Of a stretch of 64,000 bases of DNA, positions 111 to 7,095 are shown piece by piece; positions within the stretch are counted from its first letter, which is position 1, and every line of letters starts with the position of its first letter. The notes under the pieces are model-generated. The model was given only the letters and a program-made list of their open reading frames with translations, was not told the origin of the DNA and did no database searches. The translations under genes were made by a program, and so were the position numbers. The DNA comes from Escherichia phage Lw1: the sequence record KC801932; one strand, 5' to 3'.

Positions 111-497
111 TTATGCCTTTGGGACAACACCGAATGCCAGAAGACCCATACGATGATCGTTATCTGCCTCTTCACGGAAGAAATAGTATTGTTCATCGGA
201 AATATCGATTACGGTGATACCCTCTTTCAGATACGGCAACAGATATAACGGGATCAGCATCAAATCAGATTCACTGCTCCATTTACGGAAACCCAGATTT
301 TCCATTTCTTCCCGCGTCAAATCATTAGGATCTACCGGAAAGAAATTAGGCGATTTCATCAGGCGACCAGGAAGGTCACGAATATTGCTGATTGCGAATT
401 CCGTTCCCCATGAAGTGTATTCAATAGGTTCGGCGGCACGGGTTGCGGTAGCAACGAGAATCATTTGGCACAGTTGAAAAGTATTTGGATTGCTCAT
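111..497 (-). CDS. hypothetical protein (128 aa)
   Basis: ORF track; start overlaps stop of upstream NUDIX gene (ATGA coupling). Confidence 0.5.
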   Translation of the reverse strand: MSNPNTFQLCQMILVATATRAAEPIEYTSWGTEFAISNIRDLPGRLMKSPNFFPVDPNDLTREEMENLGFRKWSSESDLMLIPLYLLPYLKEGITVIDISDEQYYFFREEADNDHRMGLLAFGVVPKA

Positions 498-907
498 GAT
501 ATAGATCCCACAAGTTTAGTCAGAAGGTGTCCCATAGTCTTACGCGCATGATCGCGGATTTCGCTATAAGGAACATATTTGAAACCATCCATTTCTGTTA
601 TAGTTCGACCATTCTTAACGAAGGTTGACGCACAGAAACATTTTTCGGCTTCGGGGTAAGTATCGCCTTTGTAGACAAACAATGCAAGTTTTTTCTTGTT
701 TGTATAGTCCAAAACACCCAGGCTGATCAGTTGGTCGGGGAACACTTCAAAGCCAGTTTCTTCGAAGCATTCACGAATAGCAGCATCAATATGGGCTTCG
801 CCTTTTTCAACATGCCCCTTTGGGATATCCCAGTGGGGCGTTTCGGTAGCGTGACCCATTAGAATGCTGCCGTTATTCAGAAAGAGAATACCAGCAGACA
901 ATTCCAT
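494..907 (-). CDS. NUDIX hydrolase
   Basis: Nudix box GHVEKGEAHIDAAIRECFEETGF; start moved to internal ATG at 907 (MELSAGILF..., GGAG-like SD upstream) because the ORF-track start at 1057 would overlap the neighbouring gene. Confidence 0.7.
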   Translation of the reverse strand: MELSAGILFLNNGSILMGHATETPHWDIPKGHVEKGEAHIDAAIRECFEETGFEVFPDQLISLGVLDYTNKKKLALFVYKGDTYPEAEKCFCASTFVKNGRTITEMDGFKYVPYSEIRDHARKTMGHLLTKLVGSIS

Positions 908-908
908 G

Positions 909-1136
909 TTATACCCCTTTAGAGGTAAACTGTGCGTCGTATGCTGCAAGTGCATTATCTGCACGTTTTTTCGCTTCGGTATGCCCACGACTATCATTGA
1001 TAGCACGACGATACATTTCGACCCAGAATACGCGACGTGTATCTTCGTTCGCTTCAAACAGTTTAATATCGCGGTATACGTTTTGCTCTTTGATCATTTG
1101 AGCAAGTTGCAGGTCATGTTCGGTTTGGAAAGTCAT
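909..1136 (-). CDS. hypothetical protein (75 aa)
   Basis: ORF track; tightly packed in minus-strand operon. Confidence 0.45.
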   Translation of the reverse strand: MTFQTEHDLQLAQMIKEQNVYRDIKLFEANEDTRRVFWVEMYRRAINDSRGHTEAKKRADNALAAYDAQFTSKGV

Positions 1137-1387: not shown

Positions 1388-1673
1388 AATATTCTTCGTA
1401 GTCCTCGCAATCTGGGAGATACGTTTCGCAGAACATGCACAACGTGAAGAAAGTAGGCTGGCGAATCCCTGGATTATCAGGTAGATACATCCAGAACGTG
1501 TTAGCAAACACGATGAAGGTTTTCAGGTTTTCAACGGTTACTTCGCTGATACCATCATAACCGGATTGAGCAATAGCGCGTTCCAGGGGAACATGGTATT
1601 GCTGGCAGTAGTCGGCGTAATGTTCACTCAATACCATTGAGTTAGCCGCTTTTACGAGATCGATAATTTTCAT
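1380..1673 (-). CDS. hypothetical protein (97 aa)
   Basis: ORF track; start overlaps stop of upstream gene. Confidence 0.5.
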   Translation of the reverse strand: MKIIDLVKAANSMVLSEHYADYCQQYHVPLERAIAQSGYDGISEVTVENLKTFIVFANTFWMYLPDNPGIRQPTFFTLCMFCETYLPDCEDYEEYYG

Positions 1674-2008
1674 GCTTTTACATATTCCACTTTAACAGGT
1701 TTGGCGATAAGGTGATCTTTGGTGTAACCTTGTCCGTCGCAAACATCACAAACGATTTTGAAATCTTCCATTTGGTCGACCCATCCATAATCAGGCAATC
1801 CAGAAGGGTACGTGTTGAAGGTTTTAACACTGTATCCTTTCCCATCACACTTAGGGCATTTATACGGGTATTTCGATTTGATCGCACTATACAATTGACC
1901 CAATGTGGTCGAATGATCAAAGTGTATAACAAATGCTTCAATGTCAGCAATACGCAGTTCGTTTGGCTTGATCACAGTAAACACATTTGAAGGTATGTTT
2001 GAGCGCAT
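1670..2008 (-). CDS. hypothetical zinc-ribbon protein (CPKCDGKGY / CDVCDGQGY repeats)
   Basis: ORF track 1670..2140 begins with TTG; ATG at 2008 (MRSNIPS...) preferred; two CxxCxGxG motifs at C-terminus. Confidence 0.45.
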   Translation of the reverse strand: MRSNIPSNVFTVIKPNELRIADIEAFVIHFDHSTTLGQLYSAIKSKYPYKCPKCDGKGYSVKTFNTYPSGLPDYGWVDQMEDFKIVCDVCDGQGYTKDHLIAKPVKVEYVKA

Positions 2009-2018
2009 AATATATTTC

Positions 2019-2159
2019 TCACTTAAAGAATTTTTTGATGAAAGAGAGGAACAATCCACCACCGAACATGATCCAGTATCCCGCGCCGTCACCGTGAAAC
2101 AGGACGTAAACCGCGACACCATAACAAAAGATTTCTGCAATATTCAGTAAGTTTCTCAT
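2019..2159 (-). CDS. small hydrophobic protein candidate (46 aa, MRNLLNIAEIFCYGVAVYVLF...)
   Basis: ATG at 2159 preceded by strong SD (AAGGGAGGGGA); below ORF-track length cutoff; hydrophobic composition. Confidence 0.3.
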   Translation of the reverse strand: MRNLLNIAEIFCYGVAVYVLFHGDGAGYWIMFGGGLFLSFIKKFFK

Positions 2160-2391: not shown

Positions 2392-2430
2392 GATTACCTC
2401 CTTTGTTTCGACACCCCTAATATAACAAAA

Positions 2431-2458
2431 GCCCCTGCACGAATGCAAGGGCTTTTTC
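2431..2458. terminator. hairpin with T-runs on both strands (bidirectional terminator candidate)
   Basis: gcccctgcacgaatgcaagggc stem-loop followed by ttttt on plus and ttttgtt on minus. Confidence 0.5.
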
Positions 2459-2626
2459 AAATATTTTTCAACATGCGTAGTTGAGGTGGACAATCTGGAG
2501 AAGCAATCAAACGATCCAGGCGAGACATAACGCGACGGTATCCGTCATACTCAAACTTGATTTTAGGCGGTACGTAGTTCACGTTAATTGCGTTGCGCGT
2601 GTTAATGTTCGCTTCGTACTCAGGGA

Positions 2627-3148
2627 TCACGAACTCTCGCCGCGATGTTCGATGTGCTCCGTGATATCCTCAACAGTCTTATCAAGGTCCAGAGATTCAG
2701 CATCTTCCTTGATAATAGTCAAATCTACAGGCAGTGTCAACAGTCTTTTCACTCCGCTGATATCTTCGATACGAGAATCATACGCAAGGGTAACATGCGG
2801 TTTGTAGTTGTCAAAATCGTAAGTCGCTCCGGCATCCATCGCATCATTGAAACGGCTATGCAGATAATCAGACTCCAGAACACCGACGATAGTGTTACCG
2901 TATTTTGTGTCCCACTTCTCTACGTCAACCAGTCGGGCAGGTTCAGAGATACCAGAGGCAGGGAACAAATCAACCGTCTTACGGCTATACACAATCGTTG
3001 TATGAAGTTTTTCAGCAGACACCGGATTCTCTACACCCAGAAGTTTTTGCACTTGTGCAAGCGCTTCACAGGAAGCCTGATCGAACTTCGCACACATATA
3101 GATCCCCGAATCAACTACGGGTTTCGCAACTTCAATAAAACTTTTCAT
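2627..3148 (-). CDS. acb1: 2H phosphoesterase-fold protein, Acb1-like (anti-CBASS cyclic-oligonucleotide phosphodiesterase candidate; T4 gene 57B position)
   Basis: Two H-x-T motifs (HTTIV at His49, HVTLAY at His118) typical of 2H phosphoesterases; lies immediately next to 57A and gene 1 as 57B does in T4; SD GGAG before ATG 3148. Confidence 0.6.
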   Translation of the reverse strand: MKSFIEVAKPVVDSGIYMCAKFDQASCEALAQVQKLLGVENPVSAEKLHTTIVYSRKTVDLFPASGISEPARLVDVEKWDTKYGNTIVGVLESDYLHSRFNDAMDAGATYDFDNYKPHVTLAYDSRIEDISGVKRLLTLPVDLTIIKEDAESLDLDKTVEDITEHIEHRGESS

Positions 3149-3158
3149 GTGTACTCCA

Positions 3159-3181
3159 AATGAAAAAGGGGCCGAAGCCCC
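3159..3181 (-). terminator. rho-independent terminator candidate downstream of 57A
   Basis: ggggccgaagcccc hairpin followed by T-run on minus strand. Confidence 0.5.
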
Positions 3182-3202
3182 TAGTGGTTAAACGCCTAAG
3201 CG

Positions 3203-3454
3203 TTAAGCATCTTTTGTTTCTGCGTCATCGGCTTCCGGCAGAAGTGCTTTGATAGCACCCAGCAGAGCATCAGGGGTTACACCCTGGGAACCGTCGATTT
3301 CCAGCAGACCGCAAATTTGACCGACGAGTTGGCGATGGCTTTGCAGTTCCTGATCTTTACCCTGAATGATTTCGTTCAGATCGAATACACGGGCTTTCAG
3401 AAGCAGGATGTCACTTTGCAGTTGCTGGGTTTGGTTTTTGGTTTGTTCAGTCAT
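3203..3454 (-). CDS. 57A: tail fiber assembly chaperone gp57A-like
   Basis: 83-aa acidic coiled-coil protein (MTEQTKNQTQQLQSDILLLKARV...) resembling T4 gp57A N-terminus; synteny 57B-57A-1-3. Confidence 0.6.
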   Translation of the reverse strand: MTEQTKNQTQQLQSDILLLKARVFDLNEIIQGKDQELQSHRQLVGQICGLLEIDGSQGVTPDALLGAIKALLPEADDAETKDA

Positions 3455-3465
3455 TGTTTACACTC

Positions 3466-4125
3466 TTAAAAGTTAAATACATTCAGCACGTCAGTTTTCA
3501 ATTCACCAAGCGTACCATTATTTAGGATGATAATATCGTTTGGTTGGGGTTTCAATCCTTTCTCAGTTGAATGGCTATCGTCTTCCCCAGTTTCGCGTTC
3601 GATGAATACAAATTTAGTCCCGAACTTGCTCAGGTATTTATATTCATGTTTTTGTCGAACGTCTGTAATGATAAAGTGATCTTTATCGGATTTCAAGATT
3701 TTCTTCAATACAATGTCAGTCCATACAGAATCGTTCTCATTGCAAACGATGTCAGTACCGAAAACCTGCATCAAACGGCGTATTGTCCAGGGATGTTTGT
3801 TTGTTTGGCAAATTTCATACGCGATGATATCAGCATTATTAAGCCAGTACCCGCGTTTAGTCAACGATTCAATGCCATTAGCAAACAGCATACGCGCACC
3901 TTCGTTAGACATCAACAGGGGTGCTTCCCGATCCCCTGAATAGAATGGGTTTGTTTTAGAGAGTTCTCGCAGATAGCGATCCCCTGATGCAGACATTCCA
4001 TTTCTCAGGATACTCTTTATTTCATCAGCAAGCGCGATTGCTTCAACGTTCTGATAGTTATCCAAAACGAATTGAGAAACGGTGTCTTTACCTGTTCTCT
4101 TTTTTCCGCAAATACCATAAATCAT
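3466..4125 (-). CDS. 1: deoxynucleoside monophosphate kinase (gp1)
   Basis: P-loop GKKRTGKDT, RRLMQVFGTD and DVRQKHE motifs shared with T4 gp1; synteny. Confidence 0.85.
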   Translation of the reverse strand: MIYGICGKKRTGKDTVSQFVLDNYQNVEAIALADEIKSILRNGMSASGDRYLRELSKTNPFYSGDREAPLLMSNEGARMLFANGIESLTKRGYWLNNADIIAYEICQTNKHPWTIRRLMQVFGTDIVCNENDSVWTDIVLKKILKSDKDHFIITDVRQKHEYKYLSKFGTKFVFIERETGEDDSHSTEKGLKPQPNDIIILNNGTLGELKTDVLNVFNF

Positions 4126-5721: not shown

Positions 5722-5753
5722 AAAGCCCCTTCCTTTCGGTTGGGGCTTTTTTT
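5722..5753. terminator. rho-independent terminator between convergent genes
   Basis: aaagccccttcctttcggttggggcttt + T-run; identical 28-nt sequence recurs at 40986..41013. Confidence 0.7.
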
Positions 5754-6606
5754 AATATCGGTTCCAAACTTTTTTCGCGCTGTATGGTTTTCCTTTCGAC
5801 TGGAAAGCCTGTGTAGGCAACCAAACTGCTTTCGCCCAGTCTTTTGGGGCTATCTCTGCAAGAGGTGATCGCAGGTGCGCAGGTAAGTATGCTTTGATCA
5901 TTTGATCTGCACCGCGCATCCCTTTCACGTTGTTCCAGTTGATTTTCAATCTGGTTTTGTTTGAAAGGCGATCTGTTGAACCATAACCACGTTTCAACAG
6001 TTCTTCTAAAAACTCTTGACGGGCTTTAGGTGGCGCATAGTGCAAGTTCAAACCGTACAGAACAACGTTACCCGCTTTAGAACGTCCTGAACCCAGGAAG
6101 ATGATTAGCGGGAACCGATCCCAGTATGGTAAGGTGTCTTTATATTTCGCGTCATACACGAACGTATACAGGCGACCTGTTGCTGGTTTCGCTACCCTGT
6201 GCGTTTTGATGCTGGTTTTGATGAAGTCACCAAACCAATCGGTTGAATCCTTTTGACGTTTCGCAGCAGAAACACCAACTGTAATTTTCCGTAAACTATT
6301 TCGGAAGTCGTTGATGATGTCAACTGTATGTTTTTTGCGATAGTCATTGCGTTTTCGTCGGGCTTCGGTTTCTGCTGTACGTCGCGAGATTTCATCATCA
6401 ATCTGCTGTTTATAGCGGTGCATAGACTTTGTGAACGTTGCGTATGCAATCCCGTTTTCGTCCGCGAATTTTTTGGCTGTCATGCCTTTTAATTTTGCGC
6501 GTCTGAATTTAACACCCAGTTCAACCCATTCACCAAGTTTTCGCTTCGGTGGCGGTTTCGGCTTATCTTCTTCTGCGATGATCTCAAACTCAAATATAAA
6601 ACTCAT
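5752..6606 (-). CDS. 2: DNA end protector protein gp2-like
   Basis: 284 aa basic protein in T4 gp2 position (between gp3 and gp4); GGAGGG SD. Confidence 0.6.
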   Translation of the reverse strand: MSFIFEFEIIAEEDKPKPPPKRKLGEWVELGVKFRRAKLKGMTAKKFADENGIAYATFTKSMHRYKQQIDDEISRRTAETEARRKRNDYRKKHTVDIINDFRNSLRKITVGVSAAKRQKDSTDWFGDFIKTSIKTHRVAKPATGRLYTFVYDAKYKDTLPYWDRFPLIIFLGSGRSKAGNVVLYGLNLHYAPPKARQEFLEELLKRGYGSTDRLSNKTRLKINWNNVKGMRGADQMIKAYLPAHLRSPLAEIAPKDWAKAVWLPTQAFQSKGKPYSAKKVWNRY

Positions 6607-6627: not shown

Positions 6628-7095
6628 TTATTGCCCTTTCCATCCAAATACACGTTTCAACGTGTCTTCTGTGATGATCTTAAACTCCCAGCCCTTTTGT
6701 TTTGCTGCTGCATTAGCGGCTTTCCATTTGTCAATGTTTACTGCATAAGTATACAGCGCATCAACAAATTTCTTTTTGTTGTGAACGTTGTTATTCGCTG
6801 GTTTCGGTGGTGGCAATGTTTCTTTCATCGGTTTGACTTCCCATAGGTAGGTCACTCCGTTATCCATTTCAACATAAAAATCCATGAAGTAACGCCGTCT
6901 TTTACCGTCTGCGTTGCTGAAATAGGGGATAACAACCTCTTCACTGTTCCAGCGCTTTACATGCGGGTTTCGATCAAGCCAGTTCATAATATATTTTTCC
7001 CAGCTTGAACGATACGTTATCTTTCGGGGATCGCCTTTATATTTTGTGATGTTCTGGGGCATAAAAGACCCCTTGTACGTCTGTCTTCCAGCCAT
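6628..7095 (-). CDS. 4: head completion protein gp4
   Basis: MAGR..YKG N-terminus and size match T4 gp4; synteny next to gp53. Confidence 0.65.
   Translation of the reverse strand: MAGRQTYKGSFMPQNITKYKGDPRKITYRSSWEKYIMNWLDRNPHVKRWNSEEVVIPYFSNADGKRRRYFMDFYVEMDNGVTYLWEVKPMKETLPPPKPANNNVHNKKKFVDALYTYAVNIDKWKAANAAAKQKGWEFKIITEDTLKRVFGWKGQ

Follow-up and report, generated by a model that had tools for sequence, protein, structure and literature searches.

Acb1, the founding anti-CBASS nuclease, is widely carried by T4-like phages. In phage T4 it is the product of gene 57B (NP_049750.1), a protein of the 2H fold in which H44, T46, H113 and T115 are catalytic, Y12, W74 and F107 stack on the nucleobases, E141 reads the adenine N6, and W147 forms a C-terminal lid that stacks on the base (Hobbs et al. 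2022, PMC9117128). T4 Acb1 and nine further homologues, all that were assayed, cleaved 3'3'-cGAMP and cAAA (PMC9117128). The solved Acb1 of Erwinia phage FBB1 (7T26, 7T27) likewise has a C-terminal Trp lid, which closes over cGAMP. PDE-9 of Burkholderia phage BCSR5 (9Q2G, 9Q2Y) is a viral 2H phosphodiesterase of the same structural group, and its lid is N-terminal (10.1101/2025.08.21.671373). That study also reported that deletion of the lid from T4 Acb1 led to loss of activity in a Panoptes activation assay, and argued that it is the core, and not the lid, that sets substrate preference (10.1101/2025.08.21.671373).

We examined a minus-strand gene of 173 codons in the 64,000-nt stretch of DNA analysed here, referred to as the window. 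The gene is very probably the acb1 orthologue of an RB16-like Pseudotevenvirus, encoding an active cyclic-oligonucleotide phosphodiesterase that serves as an anti-CBASS factor, in an allele derived by deletion. At the sequence level, similarity to the Acb1 family was confirmed to lie far above chance. The Pfam profile Acb1 (PF23474) matched residues 15-158 over positions 2-142 of its 144 (163.5 bits, cut-off 27, E=3.3e-48), phrog_755 matched with E=2e-52 under the family label 'RNA ligase', and the best match among solved structures in a phmmer search of the PDB was FBB1 Acb1 (7T26, E=4e-25). Alignment gave clear similarity both to FBB1 Acb1, with ~38-41% identity, and to the 57B protein of the T4-type phage RB32, T4-type 57B proteins being ~41-42% identical to the window protein. 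A tblastn search of phage genomes found relatives in 1,467 records, headed by RB16 gp57B (ADJ55485.1) with 100% protein identity; the coding sequence agrees with RB16 57B at every nucleotide.

An AlphaFold2 model built from 24 sequences showed a mean pLDDT of 84.5 and a confident core, with values below 50 only at residues 1-7 and 159-173. Foldseek comparison of this model with the PDB ranked 7T27 and 7T26 first (E ~1e-13, TM 0.79-0.81 by target length), followed by BCSR5 PDE-9 (E=1e-8 to 8e-10), which is a marginal match by sequence (E=0.15), and by LigT-type 2H enzymes (E ~1e-4, TM ~0.43-0.55). The protein therefore joins a profile match above threshold to a 2H fold bearing an HxT/HxT tetrad, as expected of an Acb1 family member.

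The surrounding gene order agrees with this assignment. RB16 and RB32 share the order gp3-gp1-57A-57B, and the window 57A is 31% identical to RB32 57A by BLASTP (E=3e-5). The initial annotation had proposed an Acb1-like 2H phosphoesterase from paired HxT motifs 69 residues apart and from a location beside 57A and gene 1, taken as the T4 position of 57B. The call is borne out by sequence, predicted fold and kept gene order; re-reading of the translation recovered both motifs at H49 and H118, and the slot was verified by the RB16 and RB32 annotations, the Pfam DNMK match and the RB32 57A match. The Acb1 call as such is already known: since RB16 carries the gene under the name 57B, and Acb1 is the product of T4 57B, it is implicit in public annotation. 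Coordinates of the features are collected in Table 1.

Table 1. Features of the acb1 locus in the window and of the corresponding loci in relatives
Feature	Position	Strand	Basis
acb1 / gene 57B coding sequence, 173 aa, TGA stop at 2627-2629	2627..3148	-	ORF list, Pfam PF23474, RB16 identity, AlphaFold2 model
ATG start of acb1	3146..3148	-	sequence reading
Shine-Dalgarno GGAG of acb1, 5 nt before ATG	3154..3157	-	sequence reading
First catalytic HxT, H49-T50-T51 (HTTIV), equivalent to T4 H44/T46	2996..3004	-	sequence reading
Second catalytic HxT, H118-V119-T120 (HVTLAY), equivalent to T4 H113/T115	2789..2797	-	sequence reading
Lid-equivalent tail L155-T163 (LDLDKTVEDIT), K157 at the T4/FBB1 lid-Trp position	2660..2686	-	alignments A1, A2
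Vestige of the lost module, E164-G170 (EHIEHRG, first β-strand), with junction-derived E171-S173	2630..2659	-	207-aa relatives
Deletion junction	2631..2637	-	blastn against Taquito/Miro, junction sequences
57-aa remnant ORF, GTG start overlapping the acb1 stop as GTGA	2457..2630	-	identity to Taquito_0191
Strong terminator-like hairpin, 13 bp stem, closing the gp3-gp1-57A-acb1-remnant run	2427..2456	-	terminator scan
Hairpin GGGGC-UUCG-GCCCC then U5, between 57A and acb1, just before the acb1 RBS	3160..3182	-	terminator scan
Gene 57A (tail-fibre chaperone), upstream neighbour	3203..3454	-	RB16 annotation; BLASTP against RB32 57A
Gene 1, dNMP kinase	3466..4125	-	Pfam DNMK E=3.3e-49; RB16 annotation
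57A-acb1 hairpin in relatives	L003 about 1465-1490; L004 about 1466-1490		
Module loci in relatives	L003 2013-2124; L004 2013-2124; L005 1450-1626; L006 2486-2610		

The window differs from T4-type phages in the interval between 57A and acb1. The two genes abut or overlap in phages such as RB32, whereas here they are separated by a 54-nt spacer containing a terminator-like hairpin, which is kept in RB16 (UUCG loop), in Taquito (GAAA loop) and in Miro (UUCG loop; annotated as a terminator). Since no room for a promoter is left after the hairpin, acb1 is presumably expressed by read-through, unless the hairpin acts as an RNA-stability element. Miro also has an annotated terminator at the site equivalent to the hairpin that closes the run in the window.

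To assess the active site, the window protein was compared with RB32 57B and FBB1 Acb1, and then with 25 further homologues. The catalytic tetrad of T4 is conserved as H49, T51, H118 and T120, and these residues are invariant across alignments A1-A3; the 69-residue spacing of H49 and H118 equals the H44/H113 spacing of T4 Acb1 (PMC9117128). The base-stacking residues Y12, W74 and F107 of T4 are conserved as Y17, W79 and F112, and the adenine-reading E141 as E151. Three of the four stacking aromatics are thus kept; the fourth, the lid residue W147 of T4, is not conserved and is replaced by Lys157. By alignment, the window protein lacks the stacking-Trp lid of Acb1, which constitutes a real difference from T4 near the predicted active site.

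The same position is Lys in the sampled close relatives (P0001-P0018, Taquito and Miro), or Ser in two of them. The surrounding segment LDLDKxxxDIT is kept within the clade and resembles the T4 sequence LDWAEDLK, without its aromatic residue. It has low pLDDT in the AlphaFold2 model, and where FBB1 Acb1 has its Trp lid the window protein has this Lys and a longer acidic tail that is predicted to be disordered. Distant Acb1 members detected by Pfam (P0022-P0025) terminate directly behind the final core strand, with no lid at the C-terminus, so the Trp lid marks the T4/FBB1 subgroup and not the Pfam family as a whole.

The initial annotation had further noted that the protein is longer than T4 57B, and had suggested from this that its substrate range may differ. 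The length difference holds (173 aa against 152 aa), but it does not support the suggestion, because the additional ~21 residues comprise ~5 at the N-terminus, a 5-residue insertion after residue ~132, one residue in the lid segment and, at the C-terminus, 11 residues left over from a lost module. None of them points to a larger substrate pocket.

The origin of the C-terminal vestige was revealed by the nearest metagenomic and phage homologues, which are mostly 207-208 aa long. After the shared '...DITEHIEHRG', the 207-aa relatives continue with 'DKWV[IV]LNxDRTKELGEYDSKEAAEKRLRQIEYFK'. Taquito (Pseudotevenvirus) and Miro (Slopekvirus) each encode a 207-aa 57B homologue followed by an intact 179-aa gene of unassigned function. 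The deletion was mapped by blastn of the window against these two loci. Against Taquito, the window matches through position 2012 of the Taquito locus (L003) and again from 2511, so that ~498 nt (L003 2013-2510) are absent; acb1 thereby loses its final 37 codons, and the gene downstream loses roughly its first 122. The junction reads ...CGCGGCGA-GAGTTCG-TGATCCCTGAG..., and a new stop follows three junction-derived codons (ESS).

The downstream gene has been reduced to the 57-aa ORF that follows acb1. This ORF shares 84% identity with Taquito_0191 over residues 123-179 of the latter, which identifies it as a remnant of the C-terminal third of the 179-aa gene; among PHROGs it matches phrog_35735 (57 positions, full length) and phrog_7718. 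The phrog_7718 179-aa gene is intact beside acb1 in Taquito, Miro, RB43 and others. In RB16 the remnant is annotated as 'conserved hypothetical phage protein'. Taken together, the comparison indicates that the window allele is a deletion derivative and that the clade ancestor was a 207-aa protein with a ~40-aa β-β-β-α C-terminal module. The 207-aa Acb1 proteins of RB43, Taquito, CfP1 and Miro are 79-97% identical to the window protein over residues 1-170, and their phages share with the window the LDLDKxxxDIT segment, the upstream hairpin and the neighbouring genes. They keep the complete module (GDKWVvLNhDRTKELGEYDSKEAAEKRLRQIEYFK) and the intact 179-aa gene, whereas in the window and RB16 a single deletion has taken both away. 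The 207-aa proteins are annotated as 'RNA ligase' or 'hypothetical protein'.

To determine how widely the truncated allele occurs, a 191-nt query across the junction was searched against phage records, and the best 30 records were listed. Among these, the match was contiguous across the junction only in the two RB16 records (GenBank and RefSeq). The other 28 gave matches split into two pieces spanning 658-680 nt, and include RB43, CfP1, IME-CF2, Miller, and Cronobacter, Enterobacter and Klebsiella phages. Consistent with this, a collection of 153 billion gene positions listed the exact 173-aa protein for the RB16 assembly alone. The truncated allele, which two closely related genomes have in common, is derived and rare. 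The window is nevertheless distinct from RB16, with a block at 500-1750 of 68-90% identity between flanks of 96-100%, a pattern that points to mosaic exchange among RB16-like phages.

We next examined the segment that the deletion removed. In the AlphaFold2 model of a 207-aa relative (P0001) it consists of strands at 165-169, 172-176 and 183-187 and a helix at 190-206, with pLDDT 78-90, and is thus predicted to be a compact β-β-β-α module of ~40 aa. The window protein retains only the first of these strands (EHIEH), and its own model predicts disorder at this place (pLDDT <50 in AlphaFold2). The module follows the consensus GDKWVvLNxDxxKxLGxYDSKEeAexrLrqIEyFK and was found by tblastn in 485 phage records. 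Three contexts were seen. In Pseudotevenvirus, Slopekvirus and related phages the module is fused to Acb1; it also forms a protein of 58-62 aa by itself (P0026; Klebsiella phage Menlow gp215, Ackermannviridae); and in Skatevirus PJN025 it sits right at the N-terminus of a DUF2213-domain protein whose gene lies beside head genes. A word-index protein search with the 47-aa module returned P0026 alone, a limit of that method rather than a sign of rarity, given the 485 records found by tblastn. Clade members of 163-168 aa (P0003, P0007, P0012, P0014, P0015) lack the module, so a full-length family member can do without it.

Searches for relatives of the module gave a match to positions 143-186 of phrog_3684 (E=3e-9), a family with no assigned function. 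Pfam returned only sub-threshold matches, to DUF7336 (E=0.09), DUF2188 (E=0.015) and DUF6723 (E=0.005), while NCBIfam and a single-sequence search of the PDB gave no match. Within the 64-kb window, tblastn for a second copy gave chance-level matches only (best E=0.015). A profile search of the PDB produced a weak match to WRI1 AP2 domains through 'LGxYDSxEEAA' (E=0.008); hhalign against the AtERF1 AP2 domain, using an approximate sequence, gave a probability of only 2%, and AP2 kinship is therefore not claimed.

In analogy to T4 and FBB1 Acb1 (PMC9117128), we infer by homology the activity, substrates and anti-CBASS role of the window protein. Its substrates would be adenosine-containing cyclic di- and trinucleotides, namely 3'3'-cGAMP and cUA as well as cAAA. 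These would bind in a U-shaped β-sheet pocket between the stacking aromatics, with Glu151 reading an adenine. The two HxT motifs would provide metal-independent acid-base catalysis, in which a 2'-OH attacks the 3'-5' phosphodiester bond lying 3' of an adenosine; a 2',3'-cyclic phosphate would form as the intermediate of this cleavage, and the linear product would carry a 3'-phosphate. Destruction of the signal would keep CBASS effectors inactive during infection. The searchable literature yielded no biochemical or genetic test of this protein or its clade, and no paper linking Acb1 with RB16, RB43, Pseudotevenvirus or Slopekvirus. Hobbs et al. 2022 listed 273 homologues and tested 9; the searchable part of their supplements contained no match to RB16, RB43, Miro or the accession numbers.

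The deletion raises the question of whether the gene is a decaying relic, encoding a misfolded or inactive Acb1 that gives no CBASS protection. Several observations would fit this: the deletion is confined to RB16 and the window among the best 30 records, it also destroyed the neighbouring gene, the tail at residues 159-173 has pLDDT below 50, and there are zero post-deletion substitutions from which constraint could be judged. The dN/dS against Taquito is 0.055 over the 170 retained codons but reflects mostly history before the deletion, and because not one nucleotide of the gene differs between RB16 and the window there is no sign of selection since. Decay is nonetheless quite improbable in our judgement, as the 2H core is complete (Pfam positions 2-142 of 144) with no catalytic residue missing, the frame closes cleanly three codons past the junction with RBS and start codon preserved, and natural relatives of 163-168 aa, which have no module, stop not far beyond the same lid-like segment. 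With both the 2H core and the lid-like tail intact, the truncated enzyme is probably still active. A further candidate is a LigT-like 2',5' RNA ligase or an RNA-end-healing 2H enzyme acting on RNA 2',3'-cyclic phosphate ends, a reading we regard as extremely unlikely. It would account for the 'RNA ligase' label of RefSeq and of phrog_755, for the LigT structures in the fold search, and for sub-threshold Pfam matches to 2_5_RNA_ligase2 (15.2 bits) and LigT_PEase (13.1 bits). These scores fall under the cut-offs of 27 and 23.3 and far below the 163.5 bits for Acb1, so that neither LigT/2'-5' RNA ligase profile (PF02834, PF13563) is matched at threshold; TM to LigT is ~0.43-0.55 against ~0.8 to Acb1, and the likeness is that of the generic 2H fold. 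The label, moreover, is older than the characterization of T4 57B as Acb1 (PMC9117128).

Assignment as an active Acb1 leaves room for variation in what the enzyme prefers. The Lys-for-Trp lid could have shifted the substrate spectrum, for example by weakening activity on 2'3'-c-di-AMP, and so avoiding a Panoptes trigger, or by favouring trinucleotides. The replacement of the stacking Trp by K157 (Lys, or Ser in two of the sampled close relatives) and the clade-wide 5-residue insertion after residue ~132 are compatible with such a shift, as is the difference in preference between PDE-9 and T4 Acb1 within one group of viral 2H phosphodiesterases (10.1101/2025.08.21.671373). The same work places specificity in the core rather than the lid, and the core base contacts, including the adenine-reading Glu, are conserved here; we therefore hold a shifted spectrum to be an unlikely, though not negligible, possibility. 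Bolder, and in our view improbable, is the proposal that the Acb1 of Pseudotevenvirus and Slopekvirus forms a distinct functional subfamily, marked by a Lys lid and a portable module, and that the RB16-type truncation is adaptive rather than a neutral laboratory deletion. If so, the module might anchor or direct the nuclease, for instance to DNA or to a virion that is being assembled or has been injected, or might adjust the range of its substrates, and its truncation would amount to altered handling of cyclic-nucleotide defences, such as avoidance of the decoy-sensing Panoptes.

Recognition of acb1 in the window adds nothing new to biology, being a known kind of gene in its expected place, but it corrects a common mis-annotation, as RefSeq and PHROG carry these genes as 'RNA ligase'. 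The non-trivial additions are the clade-specific Lys lid, the portable module of the relatives and its deletion in this lineage; neither the module nor the missing lid Trp is described in the searchable literature. RB16 and the window offer a natural module-less allele, a ready comparison for studies of module function.

Several minor observations concern other parts of the window. Across all 64 kb, ARAGORN detected no tRNA genes, and none of the Rfam families scored up to its gathering threshold. Where compared with the RB16 annotation, the window aligns with the RB16 virion structural gene block. The block at 500-1750 holds a NudE-like Nudix ORF (494-1057, minus strand) and small neighbouring ORFs. 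An ORF at 1670-2140 (minus strand) gave a weak match to a DnaJ-type CXXCXGXG zinc finger (Pfam E=5e-4, under the cut-off); its RB16 annotation begins further in, at 112 aa, and its Miro homologue is annotated with a DnaJ cysteine-rich domain. In RB16, a 690-nt Seg-like GIY-YIG homing endonuclease gene (RB16p187) lies between gp2 and gp4. In the window, gp2 (5752-6606, minus strand) is followed directly by an ORF at 6628-7095 (minus strand), which indicates that the Seg-like mobile element is absent at this position. Finally, residues 484-591 of the portal protein of cyanophage Pam3 (PDB 8HDS chain A) matched the window Acb1 with E=4e-4, covering both HxT/HxS motifs, which suggests that an Acb1-like 2H domain is fused to the portal protein in this cyanophage.
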